From assembly GCF_003334255.1 (NCBI RefSeq), contig NZ_QOWU01000090.1: a DNA stretch of 9,233 bases, one strand, 5' to 3'. The stretch is from Escherichia coli. GTDB taxonomy: Bacteria; Pseudomonadota; Gammaproteobacteria; Enterobacterales; Enterobacteriaceae. The notes beneath the pieces are model-generated. The model was not told the origin of the DNA. It saw only the letters and a program-made list of their open reading frames with translations, and did not search any database. Of the stretch, positions 487 to 9,233 are shown piece after piece (position 1 is the first letter of the stretch; the number at the start of each line of letters is the position of its first letter). The position numbers were made by a program, and so were the translations under genes.

Positions 487-1029
487 TTATTCAGCTTTAA
501 TACGCTGTACAGTTGACTTGGCAACGTTGAATTGAGCGGCTACTTTAGCGATTGAACTACCAGCAGCAAGAGCAGCTTTAATACCTTCTCTGTCAACCGC
601 TTTACCGTTACCCCTTCCAACTACACGACCAGCAGCTTTAGCAGCTTCATAACCTTCTCTTTGACGCTCAAGCATCATTTTACGTTCAGCTTCAGCCACT
701 GCTGAAAAGATTGTGAGAATCATCTTAGACGTGGGGTTATCGTCACCAGTTATCAGACCTTCTTTGTGAAAGTGAACCTTGATACCTTTCTGTGAAAGTT
801 TATCCACCAGCGTTAATACATCCACGGTAGAGCGCCCTAAACGTGACAGGTCGTGTACATGGATAGTGTCACCTTCACGAACATAATCGAGCATAGCCTT
901 TAGTTGTGGACGGTCTGTATTCTTCCCAGATGCTTTATCAGTAAATACCTTATCCAGTACGACCCCTTCAAGTTGACGGTCTGTAATCTGCTGGATTGAT
1001 GAAACTCGAACATAACCAATGTTAGCCAT
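487..1029 (-). CDS. Small serine recombinase (resolvase / DNA invertase family)
   Basis: Translation MANIGYVRVSS.Q...Q... gives the catalytic-serine N-terminus typical of Hin/Gin/Tn3-type serine recombinases (Ser at position 10 when started at the second Met), DLSRLGRS motif, and a C-terminal GR..GR..-HTH (SIAKVAAQFNVAKSTVQRI). The ORF track extends to 1053 (8 more residues, MSKANEYI); I prefer the internal ATG at 1027-1029 because it places the catalytic Ser at the canonical position, but the SD is weak for both starts. Confidence 0.85.
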   Translation of the reverse strand: MANIGYVRVSSIQQITDRQLEGVVLDKVFTDKASGKNTDRPQLKAMLDYVREGDTIHVHDLSRLGRSTVDVLTLVDKLSQKGIKVHFHKEGLITGDDNPTSKMILTIFSAVAEAERKMMLERQREGYEAAKAAGRVVGRGNGKAVDREGIKAALAAGSSIAKVAAQFNVAKSTVQRIKAE

Positions 1030-1363
1030 AATATACTCATTTGCCTTACTCATTTGATGGATTGAGTATAACGTACCGATAAAGTGTTTTACAAGGCTAA
1101 TCGGTATGGTTTTTACAGGGGGTTAGCTATACCTTTTTAGTATGCTATATCGGTATGCCTAAGAGATGGAGATGCCTTTACAGCAACTCACATAGAAAGT
1201 CAATAGATATTTGGCTTTTTTGCAAAGGGGGTCACATAGCTGGTGTGACGGGTACTTAGCAGGTATAGACCTGTGATAGATATTTTCGAAGATTCGGGGA
1301 AGATGAGATTCAAAGAGGGCTAGTCATTTTTTATAAAAATTTTCAGACTCTGAAAAGTTACTG

Positions 1364-3489: not shown

Positions 3490-3779
3490 TGAAAGAATAT
3501 AACGGTGAAAAACGATACAAAGATTATCTATTAAGGCGCTACAGCATTTCTCGTGAAGGTCATCTTCTGAAAGATACTCATGGGGAGGTTTACCGGATTC
3601 GACCGAAGAAGGAAGGAAAGAATTATTTCTTTTTTGATGGTGTGACAGATTTAAAGATTGACGCTTTGAGGTTTGCAGTGATGTATCATTTTGATGTCTG
3701 GGATTCAGTCCACCAGCTACGATTAAAAGACGGTGACCCCGGTAATCTGAAGGCCACCAATATCATCACAAAACGTTAG
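3489..3779 (+). CDS. Hypothetical 96-aa protein with weak NUMOD4 / HNH-like resemblance
   Basis: Start ATG overlaps the rep stop (TAATG at 3487-3491), suggesting translational coupling. YSISREGHLLKDTHGEVYRI resembles the NUMOD4 motif and VHQLRLKDGDPGNLKATNI loosely resembles the HNH_3 core, but the canonical catalytic His/Asn positions are not all present. The coding call is reasonable; the functional call is weak. Confidence 0.5.
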   Translation: MKEYNGEKRYKDYLLRRYSISREGHLLKDTHGEVYRIRPKKEGKNYFFFDGVTDLKIDALRFAVMYHFDVWDSVHQLRLKDGDPGNLKATNIITKR

Positions 3780-3961
3780 TTTGTTTTACCATCATCAATC
3801 GTAATTGTGATTTCATATTTGAAAAGCTTAATGCTGAAATTGAATCGTGTACTTTTGGCGATAATCATTTTTAAAAGCTGATACACCAGAAGCACCAGAA
3901 ACACAAAGCAACCTAAGCTTGCGAATCTGTGAGATTCAGCAATTGTTTCAAGAAAGCCCAT
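3776..3961 (-). CDS. Small hydrophobic protein (61 aa, one predicted transmembrane helix), convergent with and overlapping the 3' end of the upstream + strand gene
   Basis: On the minus strand, AAGGGGA is followed 4 nt later by the ATG (3959-3961). Hydrophobic segment LGCFVFLVLLVYQLLKMII. An upstream CCCTT / AAGGG hairpin (3968-3985) could sequester the SD. A promoter-like element lies upstream (see 4012-4040). Function unknown. Confidence 0.4.
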   Translation of the reverse strand: MGFLETIAESHRFASLGCFVFLVLLVYQLLKMIIAKSTRFNFSIKLFKYEITITIDDGKTN

Positions 3962-4011
3962 TAATTCCCCTTATTTATCAAAGGGAATGACCTGTATCAG
4001 CCCCTATAACC

Positions 4012-4040
4012 ATAATATCATGTAAATGAGATGTTGACAA
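4012..4040 (-). promoter_or_regulatory. Candidate sigma70-type promoter for the small minus-strand ORF
   Basis: Minus-strand reading: TTGTCA (complement of 4035-4040), 17-bp spacer, TATTAT (complement of 4012-4017). The -35 overlaps the -35 of the divergent + strand promoter. Match quality is moderate; not unlikely by chance in AT-rich DNA. Confidence 0.35.
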
Positions 4041-4062
4041 TATGTTAAATAAATGTTAAGAT
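4034..4062 (+). promoter_or_regulatory. Candidate sigma70-type promoter for the 4099-5374 small-gene cassette
   Basis: TTGACA (4034-4039), 17-bp spacer, TAAGAT (4057-4062; 4/6 to TATAAT), about 37 bp upstream of the ATG at 4099. ATGTT recurs at 4031, 4042 and 4053 (~11-bp phase) across the element. Confidence 0.35.
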
Positions 4063-4098
4063 TGTAGTATGAGTAAGAGATTTAAGGAGATTTTTACA

Positions 4099-4389
4099 AT
4101 GACTCACACAGTTACGCGCCTTTTGCCAGAGGCATTTGAACGACTGGCAGCAATCAAAGCCAAATATCCCGATATGAAGCACACAGCGCTTGTTGCAGAG
4201 GTTTTAAAAGAGCCGGTAGACTTGACCCCTTTCGATAACGTTAAGGGCGTTGCAGAGGGTTCTAAGGCCATCAGAATCACAACGGGCCAACTGGAACTAC
4301 TCAAAGCACAGTCCGCAGTAGCAGGTTGCTCAATGATTCAGGTCTTAAGCGCAAAGGTTCATCAATTAGCGGATAAGCTGGGGGTTTAA
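4099..4389 (+). CDS. Hypothetical small DNA-binding protein; two consecutive ribbon-helix-helix-like segments
   Basis: SD AAGGAG at 4083-4088, ATG at 4099 (the ORF track's 4069 start lacks an SD). Residues TVTRLLPEAFERLAAIKAKYP…ALVAEVL and AIRITTGQLELLKAQSAVAGCSMIQVLSAKV each fit a beta-strand / helix / turn / helix (Arc/CopG-like) pattern. Assigned by eye only. Confidence 0.6.
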   Translation: MTHTVTRLLPEAFERLAAIKAKYPDMKHTALVAEVLKEPVDLTPFDNVKGVAEGSKAIRITTGQLELLKAQSAVAGCSMIQVLSAKVHQLADKLGV

Positions 4390-4814
4390 TGCTATGTACA
4401 TTTGATTATCATGCGTTTTATCGACATAGAGGTCATCTTGTCCGTGAGAATAACGGAACATGGAAAGATTTAACTCGTAATGCTGAACCCTTCACACACC
4501 AGCAATTAAAATCCCGCTTCTCCAGATGGAAGAATGCACCAGCAGATACTGGTGATTTTGAGATTATCCATACCTTCGATTATGCCTCAGAAGATGACCT
4601 TCACGATGCAATTAAGCTGATTGAAGACTTCAATACCTCAGAAAATGTGGATGGTGACAAATATAAATCCCGTGGTAACCGCTATAACCGTGATGATATC
4701 ACTCAGGCCATAAATGCTGGTCAATCTCAGCGATACATTACAGAAAAATATGGTATTTCACGGAGACAGTATTTCTACGTTAAATCATTGATTAATAAAG
4801 ACAATTCAAAATAA
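4389..4814 (+). CDS. Hypothetical 141-aa protein with a C-terminal HTH-like segment
   Basis: Start overlaps the upstream stop (TAATG at 4387-4391), suggesting translational coupling. C-terminus DDITQAINAGQSQRYITEKYGISRRQYFYV resembles an HTH. No recognisable catalytic motif. Confidence 0.6.
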   Translation: MLCTFDYHAFYRHRGHLVRENNGTWKDLTRNAEPFTHQQLKSRFSRWKNAPADTGDFEIIHTFDYASEDDLHDAIKLIEDFNTSENVDGDKYKSRGNRYNRDDITQAINAGQSQRYITEKYGISRRQYFYVKSLINKDNSK

Positions 4815-4820
4815 CCATCT

Positions 4821-4920
4821 CAGTAACGGTAGAATGCACTTTACAGGCAGAGTTGCACCTTAATTTGATAAATTACCTTACCAGCCAGTGCAACTCCCTC
4901 TGTAACCCGCATGGTTACTG
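4821..4920. repeat. About 100-bp interrupted inverted repeat (three collinear helices of 7, 6 and 9 bp around a 28-nt AT-rich centre) in the intergenic region
   Basis: CAGTAAC (4821-4827) pairs with GTTACTG (4914-4920); TTACAG (4841-4846) with CTGTAA (4900-4905); GAGTTGCAC (4851-4859) with GTGCAACTC (4888-4896). The central loop is cttaatttgataaattaccttaccagcca. Confidence 0.45.
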
Positions 4921-4973
4921 GCCTCAGAATGGCTATTTTAAGAGGTCTGAGATGTGTTTTAGAGGAATTTAAA

Positions 4974-5297
4974 ATGAGCAATTACGAATTACAGATTTTC
5001 GTTGATAACGACACCGCTATGATGATTCAGGCTTTCAGTGATTCCGGTGTATCAATTGATTTTGACAGGCTGTTAAAGCTGATGGCTGATAATGCAGAAA
5101 ACATCTCTGACTTTATTCAGTCGGTGGAGTTTAACGAGCCTCGAATGATGCTACCAATTACCGACTCAAACATGAAAAGATTGGTTATCGAGCAAACGAA
5201 CAAACACAGTATTTCCCCAGAGCAATTTTTGAAAGGTGCTGTGACAATCCTGCACAGCGATAATATTCTGGTGACGGATTCTATGAGGGTTCACTAA
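4974..5297 (+). CDS. Hypothetical 107-aa protein
   Basis: SD-like AGAGGAA about 8 nt upstream of the ATG at 4974; the ORF track's longer start at 4911 lies inside the inverted-repeat element and lacks an SD. No recognisable motifs and no Cys residues. Confidence 0.6.
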   Translation: MSNYELQIFVDNDTAMMIQAFSDSGVSIDFDRLLKLMADNAENISDFIQSVEFNEPRMMLPITDSNMKRLVIEQTNKHSISPEQFLKGAVTILHSDNILVTDSMRVH

Positions 5298-5374
5298 TGG
5301 GATTGATAATTGCTTGGACAGCTTTAGGTTTATTTGTTGGTTGCTGGGTGGGCAACACAGTAAATAAGAATTGA
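5297..5374 (+). CDS. Candidate 25-aa hydrophobic peptide (MGLIIAWTALGLFVGCWVGNTVNKN), coupled to the upstream gene
   Basis: ATG overlaps the stop of the 107-aa gene (TAATG at 5295-5299). The ORF is a single hydrophobic helix-length segment with a polar tail. It is below the ORF-track size cutoff and could be fortuitous. Confidence 0.3.
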   Translation: MGLIIAWTALGLFVGCWVGNTVNKN

Positions 5375-5398
5375 TGTTACCAATCTGTTAAAAAGCTG

Positions 5399-5427
5399 TT
5401 GACAAATAACCTTAAGCATGGCATAAT
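5399..5427 (+). promoter_or_regulatory. Near-consensus sigma70 promoter (TTGACA, 17-bp spacer, CATAAT)
   Basis: TTGACA at 5399-5404, exactly 17 bp of spacer, CATAAT at 5422-5427. Predicted start near 5434-5436. A GGATAG / CTATCC hairpin sits at about +5 to +22 (5439-5456). Confidence 0.55.
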
Positions 5428-5622
5428 TGTATATATGAGGATAGTCTTCTATCCGAAGTCTATAGGAAGAGCAATTTTTCCTAAAATCATATTTTCAATA
5501 ATCCGATGGATGGATATTCTGAGTTGGAAAGGTGCAATGCTTTTCGTCATGGCCTTTCAGTTTAGTCTGAGAGGTCATCTCAAAAAGTGCTTAATCATTC
5601 ATTATTGAACCCTTACAGCTTT

Positions 5623-5652
5623 GCCCTAACTCATGATTAGGGCGTTTTCTTT
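5623..5652 (+). terminator. Intrinsic terminator
   Basis: GCCCTAA (5623-5629) / TTAGGGC (5637-5643) 7-bp stem with 7-nt loop, followed by GTTTTCTTT. Confidence 0.55.
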
Positions 5653-5723
5653 AAGAGTTTTGAAACAGAGCTTTTAAAGAAAGTTTTCCTGAAACTTCGT
5701 TAACGTTATAAGCAAACCTTCAA

Positions 5724-5756
5724 AGCCCTTCACAGATTATGTTTAGGGCTTTTCTT
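5724..5756 (+). terminator. Second, related terminator-like hairpin
   Basis: AGCCCT (5724-5729) / AGGGCT (5745-5750), extendable to 8 bp, with a 15-nt loop and TTTCTT tail. Sequence is related to the first terminator (…gccct…tagggc.ttttctt.a..agag). Confidence 0.4.
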
Positions 5757-5853
5757 AATAGAGCATCTTTAATAAATCGTTAAGTCATCTTCTAAGTGTA
5801 TTGGCGTTGAAGGTGCTCTATTAAGAAATAACCACACTTAGAGGAAAAAAATA

Positions 5854-6564
5854 ATGACAAACGATATTTACATTAATGGCAAAGTGATTGATAGCTTCGG
5901 TGACTGGTCACCACAGACTGAACATCCAGCTATCGCTATTCAGCGCAAAGAGCACGATGCGAGAATTGCACTTGAGCAATCGCTAAAGATGACACCAAAG
6001 GAAATTACCTTTGTGGCTCCTGAACCTCAAGAGATGCCCGATATTGGCAAAACTGAAGCATTATTTAATCTTGAGCGCGAATATTACCCACAGTTAAAAG
6101 AACAGCGCCTTAGATTAGATGACGCTTACAGCAAAGTTACCTTGATGCAATCAGCTATTGAGCCGTCAGAATTTGAGATTCAGGATGAATTGTCACAGAA
6201 ACCATTTGTCTATTACCAATACGAAGACAATGATGGTTTTGGTACTTTTCCAGAAAACATCACAGGCGTGATTAGTAGTCTTCCTGATGGATATCGAATT
6301 GTGAAGATGGTTAAAGCTTCAAGAGGTGCTGGTCAGTTTATTTACATGACCAATAAGAGCGATGAAGAACTCCGTGAAATTGCCAGACAGAACATCTTGG
6401 CATCACGTAACAAGCAACTTGAAAATGTTAAGTTGTATCTCTCAAGAGAGCTTCAGGCTATGAAAGAGCTTGTTAGTGAATATGAGTCGCAGAAGAAGAT
6501 TGCTATGCAAGCCGATATTGAGCAGCTTACGAAGATTTCTCAGAAGTATAGCAAAGCGATTTAA
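5854..6564 (+). CDS. Hypothetical 236-aa protein with a coiled-coil-like C-terminus
   Basis: SD GAGGAA at 5839-5844 with good spacing to the ATG at 5854. C-terminal third is rich in heptad-like E/K/Q/L. No recognisable catalytic motif. Confidence 0.7.
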   Translation: MTNDIYINGKVIDSFGDWSPQTEHPAIAIQRKEHDARIALEQSLKMTPKEITFVAPEPQEMPDIGKTEALFNLEREYYPQLKEQRLRLDDAYSKVTLMQSAIEPSEFEIQDELSQKPFVYYQYEDNDGFGTFPENITGVISSLPDGYRIVKMVKASRGAGQFIYMTNKSDEELREIARQNILASRNKQLENVKLYLSRELQAMKELVSEYESQKKIAMQADIEQLTKISQKYSKAI

Positions 6565-6956: not shown

Positions 6957-9023
6957 ATGGCACAATTTAAAGTTGATGATTTTCTGATTGAGCTAGGTTT
7001 TAACTCTCAGAGGGTTTTAAAAGGTCTGGAAAAAGCCGAGAAACAAACGATGCAGGTAGCATCACGAATTGAGAAGCGATTGAATAAAGCTTTTAAAGTT
7101 AACCCTACGCCTTTAAATGATTCTCTCAAGGTCATGGAAAGAAATGTCGATAAAACTGTTTCCAAGATTGAGCAGCGTCTTAAAAACACTAAAGCGTTTA
7201 AGATTAAAACGGAAATTGAGGATACTTTAAAGCCACTTAGACAACCGAGACAGCCACGAATTAGCGGAAGCAGAGCAATTACAGCAGCGCATAGCGTGAA
7301 TATGAGCAAGCTTCGTGACTTTAATCCTATGCTTGAGAAGTATTTTAAAAGCCAGTATTACAGCTTAAGCAGTAAATCCAAGACACTTGGAAACGAAGCT
7401 TTTAATCGTGAGTTAGCAAAATTAAATCAATCTCTTCGTGAAACACTTTCTAAGTTTAACAAGACCACCAGCAAAAATAATCACAGTGAAAATGCTTCGA
7501 ATGGTCTGGATGTATTAGCTACGAGTGCAATCAAAGCAGGTACAGCCATTTATAGTTTTCAGACAGCCTTAGAAGCTTACAGGCGGATTATGGAGGTTGG
7601 TCTGAAAAAAGAAGCATCACAACGAGCGGCACAATTCGTTTTAGGTGATGAAGGTGCTAAACGAGCTACAGAATTTGTTAAGAATCTTGCTGATAGTAGT
7701 GGTGTAGACCAGATTGAAACATTAAGCAGTTTTGCTAAGTTTTCCGCTGGTGCTGGTGATATGAATGCAGACCAGAAAGAATCCTTATTTTCTAATGTGA
7801 TTGGTACATCCAGATTAATGGGGCTAAGCACCGATGAAATTAACGGGATTTTAAAAGCTTTCGAGCAGATGGCATCTAAAGGAAAGATTCAGGCTGAAGA
7901 GCTACGCGGTCAATTAGGTGACAGAATGGCAGGTGCTTTTCAGTTATTTGCCAGAAGTCTTGGGATGACTACGGAAGAATTAGACAAGGCTATGAAAGAC
8001 GGTAAGGTTCTTTCTAAAGATGTTCTCCCTAAAGTATCCGCTGAAATGGGAAAGATGATTGATAAAGCGGGAGGATGGGAAAAGATTATTAACTCTACTC
8101 AGACGCAGTTAGGCCGCTTAAGTAATTCATGGAATAATAATTTGGCCTTAATGTTCGATGGTTCACAGGAAGGTTTAACAGACTTTACAAGGTCACTGAC
8201 TAATTTACTTAATTCACTGGGTGGTCAATCTAAAAATCTTGGTGAACATTTTGGCGACTTGATGAAAAGCATGTCAAACGGTATTGATGATTTAACCACG
8301 ATTAGCTACCGAGTGCAGGGATTCTTTGACAGAGTGACCCTTGCTTACAGAGAATTAAATGACACTCAAAAAGCTGTAGCTGATGGTATCGCAAATGGCC
8401 TGTTAAGTGCATTAAAGGGACTTGCTGGTATTGTCGCTGTAAGGTCTGGTATTGGTGCTGTAGGTGGTATCTGGAACTTAATTAGGGCTATTTCCACGCT
8501 TGGGAATGTAGCAAATACAGCAGCAGGAAGAATTAATTCACGTTCTGGTGGTGTTGAAAGTGGAAAAAGTAGGCTATCTGTAGCTGATGCAATTACCAGA
8601 GTAATGATTGTCGGTATGACAACTGATGTGATTAATGCCATTGTCAAACCGTTCTATGAACGTCAGATGAGTAAGTCAGATAATCCGATTGATAAAGTTG
8701 TAAGGTCAAAGGTGGAACCCACAGACCAGGCATTAACTGGTGACATGAACTCTTTAGCCGCTGTTTTATGGGCTATGGTTCATGGCAAATCAAAAGATGT
8801 TCCACAGTTTTCACCTGAAGCATTAAATAATCTAAAAGGTCGAGTGGAAACATTCACACAAGATTTAAAGGTTATCAAGCCGTCAGTAAATATTCAGCCT
8901 CAGACAATCAATATCACAACTCAGACGGTACTTGATGGAAAGGTTATTGATGAAAGAACCACATCGCATATTAATCGTATGCAGGAAGATACCTTGATTA
9001 GCTCAGCTTACCCAGAGGAATAA
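6957..9023 (+). CDS. Tail tape-measure-like protein (688 aa)
   Basis: SD AGAGGTG at 6938-6944. Coiled-coil-like N-terminal region. Central segment …MASKGKIQAEELRGQLGDRMAGAFQLFARSLGMTTEELDKAMKDGKVLSKDVLPKVSAEM… (DNA about 7800-8050) matches the conserved pattern of the tape-measure N-terminal domain as I recall it. Followed by a Gly/Ala-rich hydrophobic stretch (GLLSALKGLAGIVAVRSGIGAVGGIWNLI). The coding call is strong; the product call is from motif memory, not a search. Confidence 0.75.
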   Translation: MAQFKVDDFLIELGFNSQRVLKGLEKAEKQTMQVASRIEKRLNKAFKVNPTPLNDSLKVMERNVDKTVSKIEQRLKNTKAFKIKTEIEDTLKPLRQPRQPRISGSRAITAAHSVNMSKLRDFNPMLEKYFKSQYYSLSSKSKTLGNEAFNRELAKLNQSLRETLSKFNKTTSKNNHSENASNGLDVLATSAIKAGTAIYSFQTALEAYRRIMEVGLKKEASQRAAQFVLGDEGAKRATEFVKNLADSSGVDQIETLSSFAKFSAGAGDMNADQKESLFSNVIGTSRLMGLSTDEINGILKAFEQMASKGKIQAEELRGQLGDRMAGAFQLFARSLGMTTEELDKAMKDGKVLSKDVLPKVSAEMGKMIDKAGGWEKIINSTQTQLGRLSNSWNNNLALMFDGSQEGLTDFTRSLTNLLNSLGGQSKNLGEHFGDLMKSMSNGIDDLTTISYRVQGFFDRVTLAYRELNDTQKAVADGIANGLLSALKGLAGIVAVRSGIGAVGGIWNLIRAISTLGNVANTAAGRINSRSGGVESGKSRLSVADAITRVMIVGMTTDVINAIVKPFYERQMSKSDNPIDKVVRSKVEPTDQALTGDMNSLAAVLWAMVHGKSKDVPQFSPEALNNLKGRVETFTQDLKVIKPSVNIQPQTINITTQTVLDGKVIDERTTSHINRMQEDTLISSAYPEE

Positions 9024-9112: not shown

Positions 9113-9154
9113 GCTACGTGATTTCTTCTGAACAGATACCAACATCAAAAATTA
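9113..9154 (+). repeat. 42-bp intergenic direct repeat, copy 2 (downstream of the 688-aa gene)
   Basis: gctacgtgatttcttctgaacagataccaacatcaaaaatta; see copy 1 at 6874-6915. Confidence 0.6.
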
Positions 9155-9233
9155 GATGAACCGCCCCGGGTTTCCTGGAGAGTGTTTTATCTGTGAACTC
9201 AGGCTGCCAGATCATTGTTTCCGATGGAAGCAT

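Follow-up and report, generated by a model that had tools for sequence, protein, structure and literature searches.

What do four small genes do that lie in a row behind the replication genes of a mobile element in Escherichia coli, and what kind of element carries them? The genes, called A, B, C and D in the following, are located on contig NZ_QOWU01000090.1 (assembly GCF_003334255.1), in a stretch of 9,233 nucleotides that is referred to here as the window. A first reading made from the letters alone (the sequence-only reading) had marked positions 4034 to 5374 as a cassette, compared its place beside replication genes with the usual site of such genes in phages and plasmids, and considered regulatory, exclusion, anti-defence and toxin-antitoxin roles for it. 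According to the analysis presented here, chances are about even that A, B, C and D form the transcription-control module of a chromosomal island, with A as the protein that binds a triple TGTTR repeat found at two promoters.

All four open reading frames (ORFs) are genuine genes under purifying selection, at the positions where the sequence-only reading had put them. Gene A (4099-4389, plus strand, 96 amino acids (aa)) has the sequence AAGGAG 10 nt upstream; an alternative, longer start at 4069 has no Shine-Dalgarno sequence and coincides with the predicted transcription start. Gene B (4389-4814, plus strand, 141 aa) starts with an ATG that overlaps the stop codon of A (TAATG). Gene C (4974-5297, plus strand, 107 aa) is preceded by GAGGA 7 nt upstream, and the ATG of gene D (5297-5374, plus strand, 25 aa) overlaps the stop codon of C, again as TAATG. 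Homologues of A, B and C are annotated as coding sequences by RefSeq in related E. coli chromosomes, and the gene order is identical across 23 related loci that were compared locus by locus. Pooled pairwise ratios of nonsynonymous to synonymous differences (pN/pS) were 0.18 for the 96-aa type of A, 0.31 for a 92-aa type of A and 0.34 each for B and C, and the four genes together, D included, span 0.18-0.34.

At its left edge, 4034, the region begins with the −35 hexamer of P_A, a sigma-70-like promoter (4034-4062, plus strand, TTGACA-17-TAAGAT), which reached 10 of 12 matches in a consensus scan and has a TG before the −10 hexamer. A terminator scan of positions 3700-6000 found a terminator-like site solely at 5622-5644. 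As there is one promoter and no terminator before 5622, A, B, C and D are read as a single operon. Profile searches, which the sequence-only reading had proposed as a check against known phage families, were run and gave no curated-family match for any of the four in Pfam, PHROGs, NCBIfam and PADLOC. No catalytic motif was found in them, in line with the earlier remark. Profiles of A, B and C found nothing significant among PDB sequences, tblastn detected nothing like B or C among 50,697 phage records, the phages of INPHARED contained no relative of C, and peptide strings of A, C and D were not found in a full-text literature search.

The TGTTR repeats and protein A

The operon is bracketed by two promoters that have a repeat in common. 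At P_A, an operator-like repeat of the form TGTTG-N6-TGTTA-N6-TGTTA (4032-4058, plus strand) has a period of 11 bp and extends from the −35 through the −10 hexamer, and a degenerate fourth unit, TGTAA, is found at 4021. A second repeat (5375-5401, plus strand, TGTTA-N6-TGTTA-N6-TGTTG) starts 1 nt past the stop codon of D and ends in the −35 hexamer of the promoter P2 (5399-5427, plus strand, TTGACA-17-TGnCATAAT). P2 has an extended −10 element and 11 of 12 consensus matches and marks the downstream boundary of the module. The pattern TGTTR-N6-TGTTR-N6-TGTTR occurs exactly twice in the window and in none of 200 shuffles, and the chance of a second copy in the window, given the first, was estimated at about 1e-4.

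In relatives, the repeat is conserved at both places. The P_A copy lies at the same place in L001, L002, L005, L006 and L018 (related loci were named L001-L008 and so on, the island of L001 being 20001-31344), and a composite motif, TGTTR-N6-TGTTR-N8-TTGACA, is present at P2 in 20 of 22 loci. The same motif in the same geometry was also found at the early promoter upstream of a gene for a 185-aa protein, and each of the eight loci of this type has it. About 60 bp around P2 are near-invariant in 22 loci, though the flanking coding DNA has reached a pS of 0.4-0.5. Of the roles considered in the sequence-only reading, the regulatory one fits best, because two promoters with a common triple TGTTR repeat bracket the operon.

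Direct repeats of 11 bp are also typical of iterons, and the operon comes after the replication genes. The repeats might accordingly be read as replication iterons or as a packaging site, with A, B and C as accessory proteins and B as a protein with a small-terminase-like helix-turn-helix (HTH). However, the repeats are invariant while whole replication modules, one with a 312-aa and one with a 185-aa protein, are swapped between loci. As the integrase is exchanged as well, the repeat is not a binding site of the replication protein or of the integrase. Moreover, each set of repeats stands in a fixed register with a −35 hexamer, B is optional, and the terminase match of B covers a generic HTH of 45 residues only. 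A function in replication or packaging is therefore regarded as very improbable.

The candidate for a protein that reads the repeat is A. Its AlphaFold model, with secondary structure assigned by DSSP, consists of E3-8, H10-22, H28-36, E56-61, H62-75 and H79-94 at a predicted local distance difference test (pLDDT) of 67-90. These are two beta-alpha-alpha repeats, separated by a short helix, with the topology of a ribbon-helix-helix (RHH) protein, and they bear out the two RHH-like segments that had been noticed in the sequence. For this model, A and C were folded as one fusion with a (GS)15 linker, from an alignment of paired and unpaired homologues, which is a compromise. The isoelectric point (pI) of A is 8.8, and its family is basic, with a pI of 8.6-10.2 in 15 of 16 members. 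Database searches found 42 relatives of A, and in all other variants of the element a homologue of 92 aa, alignable over the full length with 30-36% identity, occupies the same position. Invariant between these deep types are H3, T4, T6 and R7 together with I58, R59 and I60, which are residues of the predicted ribbon and whose constancy matches that of the repeat. Ribbon and turn of an RHH protein are thus represented in A by H3, T4, T6, R7, K56, R59 and T61, which are invariant or nearly so, and by A75-G-C-S78 before the last helix. On the basis of the model, A is accepted as a basic, DNA-binding double RHH protein with two repeats in a single chain, which makes it our candidate for binding to the TGTTR units.

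When the fusion of A and C was compared with the PDB by Foldseek, the 11 best matches were all TraY, namely chains E, F and G of relaxosome structures of the F plasmid, at non-significant E values of 0.2-1.4. Single-chain Arc, DndE and VirC2 followed further down among hits that ranged from E 0.2 to 7. TraY of F is a monomer with a whole RHH dimer in one chain, and three of these monomers sit next to one another on about 30 bp of DNA (10.1101/2024.12.19.629322). A is similar in that it has two RHH repeats per chain, forming a predicted pseudo-dimer, and in its size of about 100-130 aa. The three TGTTR units over 27 bp likewise compare with the train of three TraY molecules on about 30 bp. On the other hand, there is no detectable homology (hhalign gave a probability below 1% for A and for C against F TraY, and no match to Pfam TraY was found), A has no relaxase or oriT context, and its presumed sites lie on promoters of a phage-related island. 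Furthermore, one of the three TraY molecules on F is inverted, whereas the TGTTR units are all direct. With their period of 11 bp, direct repeats one helical turn apart would fit an asymmetric, single-chain RHH protein.

TraY also binds its own promoter. By analogy, A or C could be a TraY-like accessory protein of a relaxosome, with the TGTTR repeats as an origin of transfer and an island that is mobilised by conjugation. This idea draws on the fold matches, which lead from TraY to other RHH-type chains including VirC2 and are non-significant, and on the tandem sites and the binding to an own promoter that TraY would share with A. It is opposed by the lack of a sequence relationship to TraY, by annotation of eight islands, in which no relaxase, coupling protein or type IV secretion system gene appears, by the tape-measure and phage 'baseplate' genes of the island, and by the exact coincidence of both repeat sites with promoters. 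We consider an origin of transfer the most far-fetched of the roles discussed here.

If the four genes are a transcription-control module, A would bind as a train of single-chain pseudo-dimeric monomers to the asymmetric TGTTR units, as TraY does on the oriT of F. At P_A, where the repeats cover the −35 to −10 region, A would repress its own operon, and at P2, where they span about −57 to −35, it would gate the promoter. Small RHH proteins that repress their own and a neighbouring promoter from operators over −35 and −10 are known from the immI region of phage P22, where they are called Arc and Mnt. In its proposed role, A is like Arc and Mnt, and like repressors of the CopG and omega type, a small RHH protein that would act on its own and on a neighbouring promoter. 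Whereas Arc, Mnt, CopG and omega act as homodimers or tetramers and recognise palindromic or heptad sites, A is a predicted single-chain pseudo-dimer on asymmetric direct repeats.

A further promoter points in the opposite direction. By consensus scan, a sigma-70-like promoter was found on the minus strand (4012-4040, TTGTCA-17-TATTAT), whose −35 hexamer overlaps that of P_A and also the repeat at 4032-4058, and the leftward promoter and P_A could form a two-way switch. Divergent from the operon lies an ORF of 61 aa with one hydrophobic segment (m61, 3776-3961, minus strand), which is annotated as a coding sequence in L001 and is kept, at 40-100% identity, in all elements with the 312-aa replication protein. 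A transcript of m61 from the leftward promoter would run antisense into the replication operon.

The exchangeable gene B and the conserved pair C and D

The four genes had been described as one cassette, and this view could not be maintained. Across the loci compared, A, C and D are core genes of every variant and B is a gene in an exchangeable slot, which elsewhere holds either a 71-aa protein and an HNH endonuclease or an HNH endonuclease and a 66-aa protein. In a search of E. coli genomes with the cassette region, 479 genomes matched, of which only 59 contained most of the query, and most matches start at about position 4893-4990 of the window, i.e. from C onwards. B itself comes in two lengths, 141 aa and 128 aa, and its type is independent of the types of A, of the replication module and of the integrase. 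Only 10 relatives were found in a profile search of 1.84 billion representative proteins.

The AlphaFold model of B (pLDDT 67) has an N-terminal domain of beta3-alpha-beta-alpha topology, a disordered linker and a three-helix C-terminal domain with a pLDDT of about 80. The C-terminal domain is a resolvase-type HTH, as supported by the model and by structure comparison, so that the HTH-like tail described in the sequence-only reading was confirmed. A similar three-helix HTH is found in gamma-delta/Tn3 resolvase, in TrpR, in sigma region 4 and at the N-terminus of small terminases. Unlike resolvases, B has no recombinase catalytic domain; its N-terminal domain is an orphan that matches nothing, and Foldseek found no significant match for B. 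In the control module, B would be an exchangeable or optional accessory regulator with an HTH.

Two other roles for B were tested and rejected. As a directionality factor of the large serine recombinase, B should co-vary with it in type, which it does not; B proteins with 98.6% identity occur together with recombinases of 27% identity. An antitoxin of the HicB type, in which an N-terminal beta-beta-beta-alpha-beta fold is fused to a DNA-binding domain, found neither structural nor profile support. Two database proteins, P0178 and P0179, are chimeras that combine the C-terminal HTH of B with an N-terminus taken from either the 185-aa protein or C, and this points to deletions between operon genes in some strains. 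The spacer between B and C contains a stem-loop (4834-4912, plus strand, inverted repeat I2; RNA fold −29.7 kcal/mol, z −3.55), whose inner 9-bp stem is altered on both sides in L005, L006, L007 and L010. No run of T residues follows, so it is not an intrinsic terminator, and it could have a part in processing or stability.

Among the proteins of the element, C is conserved best, with 66-100% identity in 23 loci compared with 26-100% for its neighbours. In the fusion model it consists of E6-10, H12-23, H30-39, H41-50, E58-62, H65-78 and H82-95 at a pLDDT of 57-77, a predicted topology of 2x(beta-alpha-alpha) that is the same as in A. Two stretches, S24-G-V-S27 and K77-H-S-I-S81, resemble the turn motif of RHH proteins, with the pLDDT of this model only 57-77. 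The family of C is acidic in all 15 members (pI 4.1-4.8, net charge −7 to −11; about pI 4.4 for C itself), and its first predicted strand, the part with which RHH proteins read DNA, lies between E5 and D11. Because it is acidic, C is unlikely to bind DNA, and the model suggests a protein that is RHH-like in topology and probably not DNA-binding. A and C as paralogues were rejected at the sequence level, with a profile-profile probability of 0.1%, and tests for internal repeats were non-significant in each of them.

A homologue search with C returned 3368 entries, nearly all of which are single-member clusters that are 89-100% identical to the query and had not been merged at 90% identity. The variable sites are scattered and show two to four alternative residues each. 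This pattern suggests, from sequence comparison, mosaic recombination at the boundary of the variable and conserved arms of the element. A diversity-generating mechanism acting on C was rejected, as the variable positions are spread out and C is better conserved than any other protein of the element.

D has never been annotated, yet an intact ORF with the same TAATG overlap was present in 12 of 12 loci examined. It occurs in two types, of 25 aa (MGLIIAWTALGLFVGCWVGNTVNKN-like) and of 21 aa (MELVIICFVLIGMIAGASIKV-like). The 25-aa type has a pN/pS of 0.24 at a pS of 0.52, and between the window and L002 D differs at four positions, every one of them synonymous. The hydrophobic peptide of the sequence-only reading was upheld by the prediction of one hydrophobic helix. 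The 25-aa type carries G11xxxG15xxxG19 and the 21-aa type GxxxG, and both have a lysine near the C-terminus. From its sequence, D is a predicted membrane helix that is translationally coupled to C. With 21-25 aa, one membrane helix and a GxxxG motif that favours oligomerisation, it resembles TisB, Ibs, ShoB, MgtS and AcrZ. It differs from small peptides of the TisB type in being coupled to a protein gene, in place of control by an antisense RNA, and has no homology to them.

Within a control module, C would work by protein-protein contact as a co-regulator or anti-repressor, with A, B, RNA polymerase or a helper-phage protein as its partner, and D would be an oligomerising membrane micro-protein of low abundance that is made in a fixed ratio with C. 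Alternatively, C and D, possibly with B, could be effectors, and A would only regulate them. C would then be an acidic, DNA-mimic-like protein or an anti-repressor directed against RNA polymerase or a conserved DNA-binding protein of the host or helper phage, and D would alter lysis timing, entry or membrane potential. The acidity of C in every homologue, the residues E5 and D11 beside its predicted first strand and the GxxxG(xxxG) motif kept in both types of D agree with such roles, as does the position of both genes late in the operon, in a fixed ratio through the TAATG overlap. That C is the most conserved protein in a highly mosaic element suggests a conserved external partner. However, C and D had no match in PADLOC, PHROGs, Pfam or PDB sequences, and no phage of INPHARED has a relative of C. 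Anti-defence cargo is usually variable, whereas C and D are a fixed core that abuts the invariant P2, and the model of C is of moderate confidence, with its pLDDT of 57-77. Effector functions are therefore possible, although we think them rather unlikely.

The arrangement of the genes also recalls toxin-antitoxin or abortive-infection pairs. In each pair an RHH-type gene comes first and the second ATG overlaps the first stop codon, so that A might be an RHH antitoxin for B and C an RHH-like antitoxin for the membrane toxin D, which would stabilise the island or kill infected cells. D is like small hydrophobic toxins in size and composition, C and D are always found together, and a site beside the replication genes of a mobile element is typical of such pairs. 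Against this, no toxin, antitoxin or defence profile matched and no feature of a known toxin family was found; the toxin-antitoxin, exclusion and anti-defence roles that had been considered for the cassette gained no positive support from databases. B is swapped for unrelated genes beside the same types of A, contrary to what one would expect if the two were a cognate pair. In the other type of the element, genes overlap tightly throughout the operon, so the coupling is not specific to these pairs, and a membrane helix of 25 aa would hardly be neutralised by a soluble, acidic protein. Taken together, we regard toxin-antitoxin pairs as improbable.

The island and the leader RNA of P2

Which element do these genes belong to? 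Apart from its ends, the window represents part of a chromosomal island. Of 5426 complete E. coli genomes, 569 contained related DNA, which was chromosomal in every case; the island is carried by roughly 9-10% of complete E. coli genomes, O157:H7 being among the carriers. The sequence-only reading had pointed to phages and plasmids for comparison; the element is neither a plasmid nor an ordinary phage but a chromosomal island with a large serine recombinase and a tape-measure gene. Annotated relatives have a length of 11-13 kb and are inserted at varied sites, namely yciI/tonB, ymdF/wrbA, within yecE, and mdtG, with the large serine recombinase (integrase) at the right end of the island. The yecE copy in O157:H7 is presumably the small integrative element SpLE2 of strain Sakai.

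From left to right, the gene order of the island is small serine recombinase, variable replication module, A, variable slot, C and D, followed by the strong promoter with the conserved leader, genes for a 236-aa and a 72-aa protein, the tape-measure gene, the so-called baseplate gene and the integrase. One type of replication module consists of a methyltransferase and the 312-aa replication-initiator-like protein, the other of an AP2/HNH gene and the 185-aa protein. Where the module is of the AP2/HNH type, no gene is annotated in the roughly 1.5 kb that separate its two genes (L003, 4940-6515; L004, 5016-6487). The small serine recombinase is encoded on the minus strand of the window (487-1053) and on the plus strand of L001 (20420-20971). 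An inversion of this segment was ruled out, since the two genes represent two types with 34-36% identity.

The tape-measure protein matches phrog_4036 (E 4e-93) and the 'baseplate' protein phrog_3721; no match was found for the 236-aa protein in Pfam, NCBIfam and PDB. Mosaicism between loci is strong, as identities range from 26 to 100% for the 236-aa protein, from 40 to 100% for the tape-measure protein and from 27 to 100% for the integrase. In a scan of one genome per species, relatives of C were restricted to E. albertii and one Escherichia sp., and the database homologues come from Escherichia and Shigella plus one cluster of Citrobacter braakii. A further 11 loci were retrieved from IMG/VR, on contigs from predicted proviruses. 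No description of this island family was found in the searchable literature.

Neither a capsid nor a terminase gene is annotated in the islands. The integrase, an own replication-initiator-like protein, the size of 11-13 kb and the absence of annotated capsid genes are features of phage satellites, and judged by its genes the island appears to be an undescribed, phage-related, satellite-like family limited to Escherichia and close relatives. It resembles the PLEs of Vibrio and the EPIPs of mycobacteria, which are likewise small and have a large serine recombinase, an own initiator and mostly orphan genes. No proteins common to the island and PLEs or EPIPs were detected, the island is restricted to Escherichia and close relatives, and it is known here from its genes. 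A tape-measure gene, which is rare in satellites, is common to the island and the mycobacterial EPIPs; according to a 2025 preprint, such genes are almost unheard of in satellites.

The ends of the window, 1-79 and 9146-9233, match insertion sequence (IS) elements of the IS3 or IS4-like (IS421) type, often met in plasmids of E. coli and in Stx phages. The tape-measure gene stops at 9023, and the 'baseplate' and integrase genes of the relatives are absent from the window. The window may represent a contig with its breaks in IS copies or, alternatively, an island cut short by an IS.

Downstream of P2, a structured leader RNA extends over 5434-5752 on the plus strand, ahead of the operon for the 236-aa and tape-measure proteins. 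Two hairpins in it, at 5622-5644 and 5722-5752, are terminator-like. The conserved leader has a length of about 200 nt. In an alignment of nine loci analysed by RNAalifold, four pairs with compensatory changes were found; two hairpins covary, of which the one at the 5' end shows compensatory changes. The leader had no match in Rfam. A possible anti-terminator pairing joins approximately 5526-5533 with 5620-5627, and in L004 and L008 the first terminator and about 80 nt of the leader are missing. An antisense immunity RNA of the P4 CI or P1 C4 type was rejected, because there is no Rfam match and the best complementarity within the window, 12-14 nt, is at chance level. Ahead of the 236-aa gene, an inverted repeat (5751-5772/5807-5828, 22 nt, 91% complementary) is interleaved with a second one (5788-5799/5834-5845), whose right arm spans the Shine-Dalgarno sequence AGAGGA of this gene. 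These interleaved repeats may serve to control translation or may form alternative structures.

P2 is lambdoid-like in being a strong promoter that is followed by a short terminated leader and by structural genes. In lambdoid phages, the series consists of Q, P_R', 6S RNA and t_R', so that the last genes of the early operon, a strong promoter and a short terminated leader precede structural genes, as they do here. The unit of the island differs in that C is acidic and not of the Q family (no Q-family antiterminator was found among A, B, C and D in Pfam, PHROGs and NCBIfam), in that its leader has two terminator-like hairpins and no Rfam family, and in that it is known here from sequence. A bolder proposal would see in C, D, P2 and the leader RNA an invariant switch at the core of a novel class of phage satellites of Escherichia with a tape-measure protein and a serine recombinase. 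In this proposal, C would act on RNA polymerase or on a regulator of the helper phage, and not on DNA, and turn the constitutively initiated, terminated leader of P2 into read-through into the tail operon, by the logic of Q with an unrelated protein, and D would couple the switch to the state of the membrane or to lysis timing. We put this forward as a speculation and regard it as improbable.

Strength of the case and its meaning

Several points weigh against a control module in which A reads the repeats. The case for it is computational throughout, and the role of A as repeat binder is something we infer. The repeat pattern was defined after both sites had been seen, which inflates the shuffle statistic, and TGTTG overlaps the −35 consensus, so that repeat and promoter are in part one and the same sequence. 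P2 is close to consensus and could be plainly constitutive, with control exerted at the terminators. Membership of A in the RHH proteins rests on models and motifs, as no match to a curated family, including the RHH families of Pfam, was found for it. The Foldseek matches to TraY are non-significant and, due to the artificial fusion model, cannot be assigned to A rather than to C. Finally, the acidic C fits poorly into a simple model of two repressors, and D has no place in a purely transcriptional one.

Small DNA-binding regulators ahead of the late genes of a mobile element are of a known kind, and in this respect the module is ordinary. The particulars are new, as far as the models can be followed: three orphan families, a single-chain RHH protein that is apparently a promoter regulator on direct repeats, an acidic, RHH-like C and an unannotated D of 21-25 aa. 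D adds another conserved micro-protein to those that genome annotation overlooks. The solved single-chain RHH proteins recovered here, TraY, VirC2 and DndE, come from conjugation and DNA modification. If the proposed role of A is true, it would add to them a regulator of the phage type, a single-chain double RHH protein that reads direct repeats.

The wider interest lies mostly in the island and in the unit of P2 and its leader, and less in the four genes. If the control module is real, the TGTTR operators, P2 and the leader RNA would provide a handle to switch the island on. It would then become testable whether E. coli has satellites with a tape-measure protein of their own.

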